Source of the DNA: Calditrichia bacterium
GTDB taxonomy: Bacteria > Calditrichota > Calditrichia > RBG-13-44-9 > J075
NCBI GenBank assembly: GCA_965227145.1
Contig: OZ245730.1
Span: forward strand, 3,086,187-3,150,186
Reading direction: 5' to 3'
Length of the DNA: 64,000 nt
Shown here: positions 49,487 through 60,332 of the stretch, one piece after another
Numbering within the stretch: position 1 is the first letter of the stretch
How the letters are laid out: every line of letters begins with the position of its first letter
Notes under the pieces: model-generated
What the model was told of the DNA's origin: nothing
What the model saw: only the letters and a program-made list of their open reading frames with translations
The model's database searches: none
Program-made: the position numbers and the translations under genes

Positions 49487-49777
49487 TCGTTATTGGTTAA
49501 TTGCTTTTTTTTTAATCTTAATACTTTAATCTTGTCTTTTCAGGGTCGGTGCCTCTTTTACTGCAGGAAAAAAAAAGAAAAAAGAAAAAAGAAAAAAGAA
49601 AAAAGAAAAAGGAGAAAAACGAGAAAGTGAGAGATGTATTGCTTTTTGAGATTTGTGCATACTTTTGTGTAATATTGATTTTGTTTTCATTTTAACCACC
49701 TAAATTGCATATTTTTTTAAATCGTCCTTTTTCTTCCGTCTTTATTCCTTGTTCTTTCATCTTTTTTCTTTACTCTT

Positions 49778-50200
49778 TTATCTTTGATCTTTCTTCTGGT
49801 CACATTTCGAGACGATTGAACCCAGGATGAGGGCTAATTCTTTTGATTCATTCACCAAGAATCTTCTCTCATCAATATTGCCAATTTCCAATTCATCAAC
49901 AATTCTCAAAAAGTAATTGCTTTCCCTGGCTTCTCTTAGCGCAATTCGCACTTTCTGGACAAATTCACGGTATGTTGATGCCTGAGATTCCTCATAGTTG
50001 GCACCAATTGAAGTCGCTGCTTTTGAAATTTGATACCGAAATACGTCGTATTCTTTCCTGGAAGGGATTGTAAGCAAAAATTTCATGGTTCTGACAGCAA
50101 AGTTGAACAACCGTTTACGCAGGTCCGTTTGATATTTTTGTTCAACTTCCTTGACAATTAAATCAATGTTCCCCGGCACTTCCTGATAATCAATCATCAC
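49778..50200 (-). CDS. Four-helix-bundle protein (23S rRNA intervening-sequence protein family)
   Basis: 140 aa; family-typical SIGANYEESQ and REARESNYFLRI segments. Confidence 0.75.
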   Translation of the reverse strand: MMIDYQEVPGNIDLIVKEVEQKYQTDLRKRLFNFAVRTMKFLLTIPSRKEYDVFRYQISKAATSIGANYEESQASTYREFVQKVRIALREARESNYFLRIVDELEIGNIDERRFLVNESKELALILGSIVSKCDQKKDQR

Positions 50201-50218
50201 AATGGTTTTCGTTATTTG

Positions 50219-50310
50219 TCATTGATCTTTTGTCTTTTGTCTTTGATTTTTTGTCTTTGATCTTTTGTCTTAATGGTCAATGGTCAATGGTCAATGGTTA
50301 ATTAACAATT
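50219..50310. repeat. Simple repeat tract: (TCTTTTG/TCTTTGA)n then (GGTCAAT)x3
   Basis: Direct reading. Confidence 0.8.
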
Positions 50311-50374
50311 GACAATAATCAATTAACAAAATTCATTATTCCATATTCAATAGCCAACGGCGGTTTGCGTAGCT

Positions 50375-50666
50375 GCGGATGGTGGTTCAACTTTTTTCCT
50401 GACCTGCCGCTAAAGTGCGGATGGCGGTTCAACTTTTTTCCTGACCTGCCGCTAAAGTGCGAATAGTGGTTCTAAATGTTTACAACCGGCTTGTCACTAT
50501 GCCGGAAGGGGTTCAACAATATTCCCAACCTGTCGTCACTGTGCGGAAGGCAATGTAACTTTTTGATAGGCCTGTTGTCGTAGTGCAGAAGGGTTTTTAA
50601 AAAGTTTCGGCAGGGTTAAACAGTAGCCGAAGGGCAGGTATATTGTTTAAAAACAGGTTGTTAGGG
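50375..50666. repeat. Degenerating ~42-bp tandem array (2 near-identical plus ~5 decayed units)
   Basis: Units 1-2 GCGGATGGYGGTTCAACTTTTTTCCTGACCTGCCGCTAAAGT; later units keep the GCRGAAGG...TTCAAC...CCTG...GT skeleton. Confidence 0.7.
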
Positions 50667-50692: not shown

Positions 50693-50812
50693 AAGAAACA
50701 TCCCCCTTCGAAGGGGGAAATCTTGTTAGCCCCTCTTTGAAGAGGGGTTGGGGAGATGTAATCTTAAGAGACATCCCCCTTTATCCCCCTTTGAAGGGGG
50801 AAATTTTAAGAA
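50693..50812. repeat. Palindromic element family, ~1.5 units, immediately upstream of ORF 50909..51646
   Basis: AAGAAACATCCCCCTTCGAAGGGGG...CCCCTCTTTGAAGAGGGGTTGGGGAGATG... Confidence 0.85.
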
Positions 50813-51646: not shown

Positions 51647-51703
51647 TGTGTCATTCGGGGAACAGTTGCGTCGGTGTGATTGTTCCCTGTCGTTTTGTTT
51701 TGT

Positions 51704-51752
51704 CAATTAGCAATTAGCAATTAGCAATTAGCAATTAGCAATTAGCAATTGG
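51704..51752. repeat. (CAATTAG)x7 heptamer tract
   Basis: Direct reading. Confidence 0.9.
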
Positions 51753-51892
51753 CTGTTTTTTACTGCGAATGGTCAATGGTCAACCCATAAGTGGCATATC
51801 GTTATGTAAATGGGGTTCAATGGGTTTTGGTTGGGTTAATCTATTGCTGAAGGTGATGGATATAGTTTAAAAATAGTGAACGACATCTTTTT

Positions 51893-52350
51893 TTGTCCCC
51901 TGATAGACATCCCTCTGTGTCCCCTTAAGAAACATCCCCCTTTGTCCCCCTTCGAAGGGGGAAAGTTGTTTAGCCCCTCTTTGAAGAGGGGTTGGGGAGA
52001 TGTTTCTTTTGCCTTTTGAAACAGCTTCTTTTTATCACCCTAAGAGACATCCCCCTGTGTCCCCCTTCGAAGGGGGAAAGTTGTTTAGCCCCTCTTTGAA
52101 GAGGGGTTTGGGGAGATGTTTCTTCAGCTTTTTGATACAGCTTCTTTTTATCCTCTAAGAAACATCCCCCTTTGTCCCCCTTCGAAGGGGGAATCTTTTT
52201 AGCCCCTCTTTGAAGAGGGGTTGGGGAGATGTTTCTTTTGCTTTTTGAAACAGCTTCTTTTTATCCTCTAAGAGACATCCCCCTGTGTCCCCCTTCGAAG
52301 GGGGAGTCTTTTTTGCCCCTCTTTGAAGAGGGGTTGGGGAGATGTTTTCT
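51893..52350. repeat. Tandem array of ~113-bp palindrome-containing units (4 units, alternating A/B variants)
   Basis: Each unit: AAGARACATCCCC...CCCCCTTCGAAGGGGG (perfect 16-bp palindrome)...CCCCTCTTTGAAGAGGGG (hairpin)...GGGGAGATGTTTCTT (inverted copy of the unit start). Unit starts near 51929, 52044, 52156, 52270. Confidence 0.9.
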
Positions 52351-52392
52351 TCGGCAAGTAGAAGGGCACGGCGGTGCCGTGCCCCTACGTAA

Positions 52393-53523
52393 TTATTTCA
52401 TGAGCACTTCGATGATGTAATCCTGCGTATCGGCATCCAGATAGGGATGCATGGGCAGGCTGAAGATGCGGGTCATCACCGATTCGGTTACCGGGAAGTC
52501 ACCGAGCTTGTAGCCGAGACCGGCAAAAGCATCCTGCAAGTGCAGCGGTTTGGGATAATAGACCGCCGTGGGCACGCCGTTTTCTTTCAGCATTGCCATG
52601 TCCGCTTCGCGATTATCGCTGAGGATGGAGTATTGCGCCCATACGCTGCTGCGATCGTCTTTTACCTGCGGCACAATATATTTTCCGGCAAGCGCCTTGC
52701 TGTATCGCGCGGCAACTGCATCGCGCAGCTCAATTTCTTCATCAAAGATGGTCAGTTTTTCCAGCACAACGGCTGCCTGCATGGTATCCATCCGTCCGTT
52801 GATACCGATGCGAACGTTATCATATTTATGTCCGCCCTGCCCGTGAACCCGGATAGAACGGAGTTTTTCGGCGATACTGTCGTCATTGGTAAAGATGGCG
52901 CCGCCGTCGCCATAGCAACCGAGCGGTTTTGCCGGGAAGAAGGATGTGCCGGCTACATCGCCGTGGCTGCAGGTTTTAGTGCCTTTGTAAGTTGCGCCAA
53001 AGGACTGCGCAGCGTCCTGCCAGACTGCCATGCCGTATTGTTTGGCAATCGCGTTAATTTCGTCGTAATCGGCCGGCTGCCCGAACAGGTCCACCGGGAT
53101 AATGCCTTTGGGTTTGTATTCGCTTTGGGGCGATGCATAGCATTCAATGGCTTCAGCCAATGCTTTGGGATCGATGTTGTAGGTTACCGGATCGATATCC
53201 ACAAATACCGGGCGGGCACCGAGCAGGGCAATCACTTCGGCAGTGGCGATAAAGGTAAAGGGCGTGGTGAAAACGGCATCCCCGGGACCAACTTCATTGG
53301 CCATCAGTCCCATCAGCAGGGCATCGGTGCCGTTGCCGCAGCTGATGCAATGCTGTACGCCGACATAATCCGCAAGCTTGCTTTCCAGCTCTTTTATTTC
53401 CGGTCCCATGATGTATTTGCCGTGATCCAGAACAGCGGCAATCCGCCGGTCGAGGTTTTCACGAATCCGCGCCTGCTGCGCGGCAAGATCGATAAATTGA
53501 ATGTTTTTTAGTGCGGTTGTCAT
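52393..53523 (-). CDS. DegT-family sugar aminotransferase (WbpE/ArnB-like)
   Basis: 376 aa; N-terminal FIDLAAQ, GNGTDAL, PLP-lysine region; next to the oxidoreductase-acetyltransferase fusion. Confidence 0.9.
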   Translation of the reverse strand: MTTALKNIQFIDLAAQQARIRENLDRRIAAVLDHGKYIMGPEIKELESKLADYVGVQHCISCGNGTDALLMGLMANEVGPGDAVFTTPFTFIATAEVIALLGARPVFVDIDPVTYNIDPKALAEAIECYASPQSEYKPKGIIPVDLFGQPADYDEINAIAKQYGMAVWQDAAQSFGATYKGTKTCSHGDVAGTSFFPAKPLGCYGDGGAIFTNDDSIAEKLRSIRVHGQGGHKYDNVRIGINGRMDTMQAAVVLEKLTIFDEEIELRDAVAARYSKALAGKYIVPQVKDDRSSVWAQYSILSDNREADMAMLKENGVPTAVYYPKPLHLQDAFAGLGYKLGDFPVTESVMTRIFSLPMHPYLDADTQDYIIEVLMK

Positions 53524-53954
53524 ATAAATATACCAGTGTTGTTGTGTTGTTGTGTTATCGTTTTACCGTATTTTTGTGTTGCTGAATACGATATGCAGAT
53601 AATTTACACGAACGGTATTGAATGAATCAATGGATAAATAAATCACTGGTTTGAGGAAGTTGAAAAGGTGAAAGGGAAAAGGTGAAAGTAAAAAGGGAAA
53701 ATGATGTTTAGATTCTGGATTTGGCTTTGATGAGTATTGCGCCAAAGATGCGTTTAATTTCTTCAGCTTCCTGATCAAGAGTTGATCGTTGGTGCTGATC
53801 ACCGATTCCTAACCCGGAAATCAGACGAAAAAAGTAGTGTGTTTCCCTGGCTTCTTTTAGGCAGATTGAAATTTTATTTGCAAAATCTTTGGGGCTTGCT
53901 GCATCCTGCGCTTCTTCATTCACACTGTGAAATATTTTAAAAAGAGAATTATTG

Positions 53955-54262
53955 ATTTAATTTCACAGGGTGTAATTATCTTGACTTATGTCGGACAAAA
54001 ACTTTCGTATTCTATTTCTGATATATCTTTTGCCGTATGTCGTTTTAAGATACTTTTCTCTATGTGTTGCATCCTGTTGATTCAGACAGGCTTCGTAATA
54101 TACAAGTTTCAGAGGTCTTCTATCAGCGGTTGATTTAACTTTGCCTGCTTGGTGTTCTGAGATTCTCATTTTCAAGTCACTTGTGTAACCCGTGTAGAAT
54201 TTTCTGTCCTTCTGACTCAACAATACGTAAACATAAAAAAAATTCATTTAATTTCACAGGGT
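53955..54262 (-). mobile_element. Putative mini mobile element: GIY-YIG ORF bounded by 17-bp perfect direct repeats ATTTAATTTCACAGGGT
   Basis: Direct repeats at 53955..53971 and 54246..54262. One overlaps the ORF start codon, the other its stop codon. Element sits inside the conserved SIGAN motif of the host 4HB gene. Confidence 0.55.
53963..54247 (-). CDS. GIY-YIG nuclease family protein (small stand-alone form)
   Basis: 94 aa; MNFFYVYVLLSQKDRKFYTGYTSDLKMRISEH matches the GIY-YIG motif (YVYVL...YTGYT...R..EH). Confidence 0.8.
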   Translation of the reverse strand: MNFFYVYVLLSQKDRKFYTGYTSDLKMRISEHQAGKVKSTADRRPLKLVYYEACLNQQDATHREKYLKTTYGKRYIRNRIRKFLSDISQDNYTL

Positions 54263-54595
54263 AAATTTGCGCCAATCGATGTTACTGACTTCGAAAGTTG
54301 ATACCGGAAAACATCATATTCTTTAGTTATCAGGTAGTGATTTGAAAAATGCAAACGTCATTATTGCGAATTTTAACAATCGTTCATCTAACTTTATCGC
54401 ATATTTTGATCCTGGTTCTCTGATCTCTAAAGTAATTTCGGATTCAATAAAATCGTAAGTTACATTGGATAATGATTTAGCTTCCAAAACTTACATCTTT
54501 TAAATTTTTTAACTTTTTACTTTTTACTTTTTACTTATCGAGAGATCAACCGCACGGACGCAACATGACCACACCCGTGCGGTTAATGAAAACTG

Positions 54596-56206
54596 TTAAT
54601 CCTTGTCCGTCAAGTTGATGATAGTACCTGAAGTTTCTTTATACTCCCGGCTGCAATTACTGCATTTGGCATGATCGTGAACAACATTCAAACGAGTGCC
54701 GCAGCGACACATCCAGCCGATTTGTTTGGCGGGATTACCGACCATCAGGGCGTATTCGGGAACATCTTTGGTAACCACCGCACCGGCACCGATAAAAGCA
54801 AATTTACCGAGCGTTGTTCCGCAAACAATGGTTGCGTTTGCGCCGATGGACGCGCCGTATTTTACCACAGTTTTGTGGTAAAACTCACTGCCGCGCTGGG
54901 GAAATTCACAGCGGGGATTGAGCACATTGGTAAACACCATCGAGGGTCCGCAGAACACATAGTCTTCCAGTTCCACACCTTCGTACACAGAAACGTTGTT
55001 CTGTATCTTGACAAAATTTCCGATGGTTACGTTGTTCCCAACGTTGACATTTTGTCCGAGCACACATTTTTTACCGAGCTTGCTGCCGCTTTGCACATGG
55101 CTGTAATGCCATATTTTGGTGCCCTCCCCTATTTCGCAGCCTTTGTCAACCATTGCGGTATCGTGCACAAAGTATGGCAGTTTTTCGGCAGGCTTGGCAA
55201 CTTCCGGCTGTTTTGCATTCGCAGCTGCGCCATGCTTTTCCAATCCGTTCTGGGCTTTTTCGAGAATTTCCAGCACAGAAACGGCATTTTTTCCGTCGGT
55301 TAGCGGCTGTTCACCGTTGACAATGCAATCGCGGAAATGCAGTTGTTCCAGATCCAGCGGCATCGGCGCTTCGTATTCGATCACCTGAAAATCTTCATCG
55401 CGCTTGACCGGCTCGCCGTTCACCCAATCGATCCCTTTGGGATAGAGCACCAGTTTGTCCGATTGGCGGGAATCCTCGAACACAACCATGCTGCGATCGC
55501 CGATGACCACCAGGCGATGCTCTTTAAAGGGATGCAGCCAACTGACATGGATATGTGCCTGAATATTATTGGGATAGGTTAACGTGGTTAAGGTAACATC
55601 GTGAATGCCGGGCTGCAGAAAAACACCGCCTTTGGCGTCGACCGCCACCGGATCATCACCGATAAAATATTGCAGCACAGAAATATCATGCGGCGCAAAT
55701 GACCACAAAATGTTCTCTTCTTTGCGGACAGTTCCCAGATTGAGTCTGTTGCTATAAATGTATTGCAGTTTACCGAGGGTGCCGTCGTTGATCAATTCCT
55801 TGATTTTGCGAATCGCCGGATGGAACAGCAGCAAATGCCCGACCATCAGTACACGATTGTTTTTCCGCGCCAGCTCATCCAGCTCTTTGGCCTGGCGGGA
55901 AAAGAGGGCCATCGGTTTTTCTACCAGCGCATGTTTGCCGCTTTCCAGCACCGATTTGGCCAACGTAAAATGGGTTTCCGCCGGCGTGCTGATGATGACA
56001 GCAGTAATTTCAGGATCTTCGAGAATCCTGCGCGGATCGTTCACAAATGCTGCTTTTGGCGCGGCGTCGCGCACTTTTGCAGCTCGATCCGGATCGACAT
56101 CACAAACGGTTTTCAACGATTCGCCGAATAATCGGCTGGCTGTGCGAATATGGTTCATCCCCCAACGTCCGCTGCCAATGATTGCTAATTTAAAGGTGTT
56201 GTTCAT
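54596..56206 (-). CDS. Bifunctional Gfo/Idh/MocA-type sugar oxidoreductase fused to hexapeptide N-acetyltransferase (WbpB/WbpD-like)
   Basis: 536 aa; N-terminal Rossmann IIGSGRWG, Gfo/Idh/MocA pattern EKPMA; C-terminal hexapeptide repeats ([37 protein letters not shown]). Confidence 0.85.
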
Positions 56207-60125: not shown

Positions 60126-60161
60126 TGTTTCCCCTGTCGGTTTAAAATGGCATCACCCGTT

Positions 60162-60332
60162 GAGACAATTCGCTCGTAGTAGAGACAATTCATGAATTGT
60201 CTCTACGGGTGAATTCATGAATTGTCTCTACGGGTGAATTCATGAATTGTCTCTACGGGTGAATTCATGAATTGTCGCTACGGGTGATTTGTCTCTCGGG
60301 TGAATTGTTTATATCATTAAAAATTTTATCAA
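60162..60332. repeat. Tandem array of 25-bp units GGGTGAATTCATGAATTGTCTCTAC (4 full copies plus flanking partials), each with the 12-bp palindrome AATTCATGAATT; first copy forms a 28-bp perfect palindrome
   Basis: 28-bp palindrome GTAGAGACAATTCATGAATTGTCTCTAC at 60179..60206; array fills essentially the whole gap between the HtrA-like stop and the EVE start. Confidence 0.9.

Follow-up and report, generated by a model that had tools for sequence, protein, structure and literature searches.

A GIY-YIG nuclease gene enclosed by a split hairpin stem interrupts a four-helix-bundle gene in a Calditrichia bacterium and probably belongs to a widespread family of mobile elements

In a 64-kb stretch of DNA from a Calditrichia bacterium (contig OZ245730.1; the whole stretch of 64,000 nucleotides is hereafter called the window, and positions are counted from its first letter), a minus-strand four-helix-bundle (4HB) gene of the 23S_rRNA_IVP / TIGR02436 / PF05635 family is broken in two by a 94-aa GIY-YIG open reading frame (ORF). 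In this study we propose that the insert is probably one copy of a widespread GIY-YIG mobile element that moves by a hairpin-linked route. The evidence lies in the anatomy of the element, the complementarity of its two arms, the breadth of the family, the presence of solo hairpins devoid of any ORF, near-identical copies in unrelated flanks, the interruption of genes, and the co-orientation of the element with the genes it interrupts. The original prediction of a compact selfish element based on a GIY-YIG protein is borne out, since units of about 290 bp bounded by inverted repeats form a very large family, of which the insert is a member. No description of this family as mobile seems to exist in the literature searched, which covered few subscription journals and held no paper linking GIY-YIG proteins with 4HB genes or describing these elements.

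The ORF of the window matches PF01541 (E 3.7e-16), its sole Pfam domain above the cut-off, and retains all 24 residues that are invariant among 39 relatives. The relatives are single-domain GIY-YIG proteins of 84-94 aa with 60-75% identity, and their number is considerable. A word-indexed search returned 2567 clusters, representatives at 50% identity numbered 46 (E<=1e-30), 3498 (E<=1e-10) and 18185 (E<=0.001), and, with one genome taken for each GTDB species, a scan confirmed at least 533 relatives among the first 600 pattern matches. At least 10 phyla are spanned, the 80 loci that were kept coming from Bacteroidota, Ignavibacteria, Patescibacteria, Planctomycetota, Bdellovibrionales, Gammaproteobacteria, Cloacimonadota, KSB1, Verrucomicrobia, Desulfobacterota and one metagenome-assembled genome (MAG) of Woesearchaeota. 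A plasmid search yielded just 9 matches, all distant (39-44% identity), so that the family is not plasmid-borne; viral contigs contained 5 relatives in 2.9 million. Among solved structures, the best matches are the UPF0213 proteins 1zg2 (E 2.4e-7) and 1ywl (E 5.3e-7).

A typical copy of about 290 bp is composed of a left arm (TTYACCCYGTnnnATA), a single GIY-YIG ORF of 84-94 aa, and a right arm (TATnnnACRGGGTRAA). In 76 of the 89 copies the arms are complementary at 12 or more of 14 positions, the left arm lying 0-50 nt before the ATG and the right arm at the stop, where in most copies it codes for the conserved C-terminus Y-L/F-T-G-stop. The inner arm bases vary by lineage (GTGAAAT, GTTAGAT, GTTAAAT, GTCAAAT, GTGAGAT, GTGTAAT or GTTGGAT), and both arms change together. 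Over the 16-bp stem of 62 aligned arm pairs, 92.9% of the cells are paired versus 84.3% in shuffles, and two-sided changes are found in 11 of the 16 stem pairs (111 cells). In 500 shuffles, not one of the five measures used is attained, and slid controls pair at 29-47%. At the level of the aligned arms, complementarity is thus demonstrably maintained by compensatory change. The third pair from the outside is mostly non-Watson-Crick, with C.A in 26 of 64 cases, T.G in 17, T-A in 8 and C-G in none.

Such covariation suits RNA as well as DNA, and one may ask whether the arms act in the transcript, either as a long-range stem that stabilises or regulates the nuclease mRNA, or in an intron-like removal that would allow the 4HB protein to be made still. 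The strict co-orientation of the element with host genes would fit this explanation, as would the one-sided changes on the sense strand outside position 3, of which 14 are of G.T type and 7 of A.C type; this bias is not significant and was rejected as an RNA signal. RNAalifold, run on 52 whole elements, predicts the terminal stem alone and no structure inside the ORF. Rfam searches at E<=1 over 49-61 kb returned chance miRNA-type matches only, none of them on the element. Moreover, the third stem position is usually C.A on the sense strand, solo hairpins exist without any ORF, the interrupted 4HB genes of the window and of locus L006 are frameshifted, and interrupted PDDEXK_3 genes are short of residues at the junction. 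We consider a role of the arms in RNA to be very unlikely. Group I and II introns were rejected on the same lack of an Rfam match on the element at E<=1 and on the conservation of the terminal stem only, and an intein was rejected since the reading frame of the ORF is not that of the host gene and is bounded by stops, in agreement with the original prediction on both counts.

The features of the window element and of the 4HB genes are as follows.

53920..54263, minus strand: inserted element, 344 bp, whose exact excision restores GCA AAT TAT GAA GAA (A-N-Y-E-E)
54251..54265, minus strand: left arm, TTTACCCTGTGAAAT, of which the first one or two T possibly belong to the host
54246..54262, minus strand: copy 1 of a 17-bp direct repeat, within the left arm and covering the AT of the start codon
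53963..54247, minus strand: GIY-YIG ORF, 94 aa, intact, whose ATG overlaps the TGA of the truncated 4HB frame (ATGA)
53955..53971, minus strand: copy 2 of the 17-bp direct repeat, containing the TGA stop, an internal duplicate of the left arm (TTACACCCTGTGAAAT, 53975-53960)
53919..53933, minus strand: right arm, ATTTCACAGTGTGAA, the inverted copy and real right end
54326..54487, minus strand: 4HB N-terminal segment 1 (M...FFKSLPDN), terminated by a frameshift (extra T at 54325)
54264..54324, minus strand: 4HB N-terminal segment 2 (KEYDVFRYQLSKSVTSIGAN) and T54264, reaching ...SIGAN at 54265
53708..53919, minus strand: 4HB C-part ((Y)EEAQDA...KEARETHYFFRLI...AKSRI, stop; NEEAQDA in the codon-boundary reading), PF05635 positions 48-103
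49778..50200, minus strand: intact 4HB paralog with an unbroken SIGANYEES motif (GGTGCCAACTATGAGGAA)

The 17-mer ACCCTGTGAAATTAAAT has exactly two occurrences, one overlapping the ATG and the other the TGA; in shuffles it finds 0.61 matches, even with 3 mismatches allowed. These repeats had been taken as the termini of an insert of about 308 bp with an unusual target duplication. They are indeed perfect and placed as described, but they are not terminal: the second copy is internal, the real right end is the inverted arm, and the insert measures 344 bp. The repeats represent the left arm of the element and its internal duplicate, and no target-site duplication is found at the window junctions, where the host bases are unduplicated. 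The layout is therefore arm-ORF-arm-loop-arm', with inverted ends and a duplicated left arm inside. The internal duplicate, a 26-nt loop (53959-53934) and the right arm make up a local 3' hairpin. Folded as DNA, its sense strand gives -7.8 kcal/mol (z -2.6) and its antisense strand -10.1 kcal/mol (z -3.95). The same layout recurs in two other elements. In L098 (Verrucomicrobia, protein P0061), TACCCTGTGAAATAG stands before the ATG and again over the stop, followed by a 62-nt loop and ATTTCACAGGGTGAA; in L012, the right arm is duplicated over 9 bp around an arm copy, with a 27-nt loop. This recurrence indicates that the 17-bp repeat belongs to the element and is no footprint of integration. Proteins with ...YLPCEI ends (P0006, P0029 and P0061) read through the direct arm copy. 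In a circle or head-to-tail junction, the ends of the window element would read ...CAGTGTGA|TACCCTGTG....

Once rejoined, the 4HB protein matches TIGR02436 in a single stretch covering model positions 3-107 of 109 (74.2 bits for a cut-off of 24, E 8.6e-21), and it aligns gap-free with 14 intact relatives at 47-57% identity. The two halves are thus one gene and not unrelated fragments. As had been predicted, both parts align to the window paralog, with 85% identity over residues 49-68 and 38% over residues 68-132, and the insertion falls within the most conserved motif of the family, in which S70, G72, A73, N74 and E77 are invariant. In the 14 intact relatives and the window paralog this motif reads S-[IMV]-G-A-N-Y-E/Q-E, contiguous and gap-free.

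The position of the junction can be refined from this motif. When the insert is removed at a codon boundary, the window and L006 read N where the intact relatives have Y, and the alternative window boundary 54264..53921 gives N-N-E-E. With the excision shifted one base to the right (54263..53920), the window reads GCA AAT T|AT GAA GAA and L006 reads GCC AAC T|AT GAA GAA. Because the Tyr following SIGAN is found in every intact 4HB sequence examined, the insertion point most likely lies inside the Tyr codon (T|AT) of SIGAN-Y-EE, the element being co-directional with its host; T54264 is proposed to be the first base of the split codon. All three frame classes occur among host families, and for this reason the T|AT junction is claimed for the window and L006 only. 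The intact SIGANYEE target sequence is GCAAATTATGAAGAAG, and the predicted empty window junction is ATTGGCGCAAATTATGAAGAAGCG.

The window 4HB gene is a pseudogene, split by the insertion and having gained a frameshift since. The frameshift is shared by four independent Logan assemblies (L001-L004), which rules out an assembly error. The overlap of the truncated 4HB TGA with the nuclease ATG suggests that the nuclease is expressed by read-through from the 4HB gene and translational coupling.

The window arrangement is repeated at a SIGAN or SSGAN motif in L006 (from three JGI samples) and L018 (an Ignavibacteriaceae MAG). The same order in three distant organisms could reflect an ancestral three-gene arrangement (4HB-N, GIY-YIG, 4HB-C) with no empty sites, the case that the original prediction had itself set against an insertion. 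Uninterrupted relatives are nevertheless the rule, as attested by the 14 proteins and the window paralog, and the element occurs without 4HB fragments in 79 of the 89 copies. Furthermore, the 4HB halves of the window and L006 share only about 45-55% identity, and each is open save for one frameshift. Halves that are diverged yet nearly open point to independent insertions of rather recent date more than to a single gene that died long ago. An ancestral arrangement is in our opinion extremely improbable.

Evidence of mobility comes from copies that agree with each other and not in their surroundings. Two contigs of one Gammaproteobacteria MAG (L062 and L063) carry elements that are 98% identical from GTTWACCC to GGGTGAA, in flanks that are 28-29% identical, which is the random level, and the ends show no duplication. 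The elements of a Magasanikbacteria MAG (L027) and a Verrucomicrobia MAG (L052) have DNA that is 84% identical across phyla, and their flanks are unrelated. Near many elements we observed ORF-less solo hairpins, which have the same arms, loops of 8-110 nt, and usually the inner bases of the local ORF-bearing copy; examples are found at L025, L050 (three copies with 71-73-nt loops), L022, L031, L038, L070, L077 and L084. Interrupted host genes, checked with Pfam on rejoined or flanking products, belong to the 23S_rRNA_IVP, PDDEXK_3, YhcG_C/DUF1016, Bro-N, HATPase_c_4/AlbA_2, Phage_integrase, ORF6N, HepT-like and ParE families, and every recognisable host gene runs in the same direction as the GIY-YIG ORF. 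The element also interrupts ORFs with a RayT/IS200-like motif, a family assignment that Pfam did not confirm. Many copies are intergenic, such as that of L017, directly upstream of recR. Neither a target-site duplication nor a common target consensus was found in 64 flank pairs.

These observations also bear on the possibility that the nuclease is a domesticated, non-mobile host enzyme of the Ssn type, its repeats being genomic recognition or regulatory sites and the 4HB halves chance neighbours. The Ssn gene of Neisseria lies on the chromosome between its own hairpin repeats, and Ssn modulates transformation (PMC11893778), and the window ORF is likewise intact and highly conserved. Such an enzyme would not be expected to interrupt at least 9 Pfam families, nor to be found in near-identical copies within unrelated flanks, even across phyla as in L027 and L052; moreover, the 4HB halves are one gene split at a codon. 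We regard domestication as very improbable, slightly more so than a role of the arms in RNA.

Some host loci have particular features. In L099 (440-940), a PDDEXK_3 (GxxExxY) gene carries a full element at its GPGLLE motif and a second left arm, TTTACCCTGTTAAGTA, about 170 nt further along, the gene having apparently been struck twice. In L087 (2977-3939), an ORF with a RayT/IS200-like motif is located between two GIY-YIG elements, one before its start and the other at its C-terminal end, and in L011, L066 and L068 such ORFs, whose family Pfam did not confirm, are broken just before ...YEHIIRNE; this hints that the GIY-YIG elements are linked to genes for REP-type transposases. In L006, the broken 4HB gene adjoins a DegT gene, as in the window, and lies amid repeated HEPN/nucleotidyltransferase (MNT) toxin-antitoxin pairs and an AbiEii gene (L005-L007, 688-1408 and 3677-4385).

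A search for GIY-YIG ORFs interrupting 4HB genes elsewhere, as the original prediction had advised, revealed 4HB fragments on both sides in 10 of the 89 copies, all oriented as the GIY-YIG ORF. Since 4HB genes form, by rough estimate, a very small part of a genome, this is a strong enrichment. In 8 of the 10 cases the junction of the two fragments falls at the same motif to within a few model positions (67-69 for the window-type subfamily, 53-60 for the classical S-I-P-S-N-I-A-E-G one), and L048 is interrupted at the second conserved motif, K-E-A-x-E-T. Same-motif insertions also recur in YhcG (L083, L030 and L043), Bro-N (L020, L045 and L060) and PDDEXK_3 (L090, L091 and L099).

Free-standing GIY-YIG homing endonucleases are exemplified by I-TevI and the Seg and Mob proteins, and their insertion is known to produce 'genes in pieces'. 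A classical enzyme of this kind would cut the intact double-stranded 4HB target, its ORF being copied by recombinational repair and the arms being incidental. The GIY-YIG catalytic domain is a known homing endonuclease fold (PMC1564403), the host gene is split at a conserved site, the same motif is hit in homologous genes of unrelated genomes (4HB in the window, L006 and L018, YhcG and Bro-N), and orientation always matches that of the host gene. To this extent the homing-type insertion that had been envisaged agrees with the data. However, the elements are not specific to 4HB genes, and their points of entry into the 4HB motif vary by as much as 5 codons. The window protein consists of the catalytic domain alone, with no NUMOD or helix-turn-helix module, and scores 17.7 bits against TIGR01453 for a cut-off of 56.05, which makes a classical homing endonuclease unlikely. 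Furthermore, the arms are conserved and kept by compensatory change, ORF-less solo hairpins exist, copies of 98% identity lie in non-homologous flanks, many others are intergenic, and the family is rare in phage contigs. Classical homing is, on balance, an unlikely explanation.

The closest known system is the Ssn nuclease/hairpin pair. SsnA of Neisseria meningitidis is a 94-aa single-domain GIY-YIG protein that binds its cognate NTS/SRM hairpin in single-stranded DNA only, cleaving on the upstream side of it (Chenal et al. 2025, Nat Commun, PMC11893778). Most Ssn homologs are flanked by NTS/SRM hairpins, and the authors noted that NTS-ssnA-NTS resembles an insertion sequence, mobility not being demonstrated there (PMC11893778). 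The window family shares with Ssn a single-domain GIY-YIG protein of about 94 aa without DNA-binding domain, a gene bracketed by cognate hairpin-forming inverted repeats, additional ORF-less hairpin copies in the same genome, and the covariation of nuclease and hairpin between lineages. Like the Ssn hairpin repeats (20-50 nt), its 16-bp split stem and solo hairpins are inverted repeats able to form hairpins, which accompany the gene and recur elsewhere, but their sequence, which is unrelated, and their layout differ from SRM: the two halves of one hairpin enclose the ORF, the right one being coding, whereas Ssn genes have a complete hairpin on each side. In addition, the window family interrupts genes and shows evidence of mobility, which had not been reported for Ssn.

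The SRM pattern HGTCWY..YYVSBRH..WNVSBRG..RNCYNB has no match in the 64-kb window and none within +-300 nt of 64 elements; as a positive control, an Azospirillum GIY-YIG homolog flanked on both sides by CGTCATCCCCGCGAAGGCGGGGATCCAG gave 4 matches flanking its gene. In the A1 profile, this SRM-flanked homolog scores 44.2 bits, L052b 45.9 bits, and two UPF0213 proteins 41.5 and 35.9 bits, values that do not discriminate with regard to cd10448 (GIY-YIG_unchar_3). The window protein is about equally distant from the SRM-flanked homolog (44-46 bits) and from UPF0213 (36-41 bits). The SRM-flanked gene of Azospirillum lipoferum 4B (plasmid AZO_p3; L089, 440-1090) separates sufB from sufC; two inverted SRM copies stand on either side of it, and it looks like an insertion into the operon spacer. 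In L052 (Udaeobacter), a 111-aa GIY-YIG gene at 1451-1833 is flanked by the NTS-like pair TTGTCATCCCGAGC / GCTCGGGATGACAA at the same locus as a split-hairpin element, and therefore two kinds of nuclease/hairpin pair coexist in one genome.

Other known systems resemble the family in part. The IS200/IS605 and REP-RAYT elements also have hairpin ends, no target duplication and a small size, and they have non-autonomous relatives made of a hairpin only, REP and REPIN, comparable to the solo hairpins. They differ in using a HUH Y1 transposase and not a hydrolytic GIY-YIG nuclease, and in having a subterminal hairpin at each end, whereas the ends of the window family pair with each other; moreover, no conserved target tetranucleotide is found in the flanks of the window family. 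UPF0213 proteins (YazA/YhbQ; PDB 1zg2 and 1ywl) are stand-alone GIY-YIG proteins of the same size and fold class, but their identity to the window protein is only about 40%. To our knowledge, UPF0213 genes are single-copy and of housekeeping type, with no flanking arms reported. Finally, classical insertion sequences (IS) and MITEs have terminal inverted repeats as the window family does. The lack of target-site duplication at the window junctions, in L062/L063 and in the flank profiles, together with the absence of any DDE, HUH, serine or tyrosine transposase (the sole ORF being the GIY-YIG protein), indicates that the element is not a classical IS.

By analogy with Ssn, IS200/IS605 and REP-RAYT, a mechanism for a hairpin-linked mobile element can be proposed. 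The nuclease, expressed through host-gene read-through, would recognise in single-stranded DNA the stem formed by the two arms, or the local 3' hairpin, and would nick beside it as Ssn does. Host replication or repair could then complete copying or excision and integration, and the solo hairpins would be non-autonomous derivatives mobilised in trans.

Several points weigh against this reading. GIY-YIG enzymes hydrolyse DNA without a covalent intermediate, which leaves the integration step by such a nuclease unaccounted for, and both transposition and nuclease activity are here attributed to the family by analogy. An orthologous empty site for the window locus was looked for without success: uninterrupted relatives with a contiguous SIGANYEE were identified, as the original prediction had recommended, but the empty junction, searched as a 36-nt degenerate pattern covering the window and L006 alleles, was not found in JGI metagenome contigs. 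L062 and L063 are contigs of a binned MAG and not of a closed genome, and the arm covariation, as said, fits pairing in either nucleic acid. The clustering at conserved motifs is unaccounted for, given flanks without a common target consensus. The frame class restored by excision varies among host families, so that a single 'clean excision' rule was rejected, and PDDEXK_3 hosts are without 4-12 residues at the junction, insertion being not always clean. Such junctions hint at an untidy, repair-dependent process.

A bolder version of the mobile-element reading is that these units of about 290 bp are a previously unrecognised class of autonomous prokaryotic transposon, and the smallest known. 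The GIY-YIG protein of about 85 aa would then be a hairpin-guided 'transposase' of single-stranded DNA, mobilising solo hairpins in trans and preferring conserved motifs in other genes of a selfish or defensive nature (4HB, PD-(D/E)XK nucleases, integrases, toxins and RayT-like genes). We put this forward as a tentative proposal, somewhat more doubtful than not.

The broken 4HB gene is surrounded by the following features.

52393-53523: DegT/DnrJ/EryC1 aminotransferase gene, one flank of the split 4HB locus
54596-56206: GFO_IDH_MocA-hexapeptide transferase gene, the other flank
53672..53701: purine-rich 7-nt-periodic tract, inverted pair with 54507-54536, bracketing the broken 4HB cassette
54507..54536: partner of the preceding tract, upstream of the 4HB start

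The last two tracts, of 30 nt and 77% complementary, are inverted around the broken gene. Indeed, both window 4HB genes are bracketed by 7-nt-periodic purine- or pyrimidine-rich tracts of the AAAAGTA / TCTTTTG type, further examples being at 49565-49618, 49713-49797 and 50207-50284, and it is possible that the 4HB genes are themselves carried by cassette-like inserts placed between genes of operons. The non-coding region between the two 4HB genes contains about 4.5 tandem copies of a 113-115-nt unit (51890-52380; a related copy at 50693-50807), each with two G+C palindromes, CCCCCTTCGAAGGGGG and CCCCTCTTTGAAGAGGGG, as well as arrays of the heptamers AATGGTC and AATTAGC and a 42-nt tandem duplicate (50272-50328, 51698-51796 and 50374-50457). 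At 60146-60300, a 25-nt tandem repeat, GAATTCATGAATTGTCTCTACGGGT, is present in 4-5 copies; it contains TCTCTACGGGTGAAT, which resembles the right arm ATCTCACGGGGTGAA of the hairpin family, and an inverted partner, CATCACCCGTTGAGA, is found at 60151. A promoter and terminator scan gave no signal above shuffles, and an exact look-up of the neighbouring DegT protein for strain variants returned no record.

Few self-contained mobile elements of bacteria may be smaller than those of this family. If the nuclease mobilises the 290-bp unit that encodes it, autonomous mobile DNA would have a new minimum size, the GIY-YIG fold would join the enzymes that drive prokaryotic transposition, and the propagation of hairpin elements would be a natural function of Ssn-type nucleases acting on single-stranded DNA. 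Dozens of nuclease/hairpin pairs with different arms would moreover become usable as tools for single-stranded DNA. For annotation, the family accounts for many short 'GIY-YIG nuclease family protein' genes, for broken 4HB, PDDEXK_3 and YhcG pseudogenes, and for breaks in metagenome contigs. Its repeated insertion in conserved motifs of selfish and defence genes raises a testable question of how the targets are chosen.

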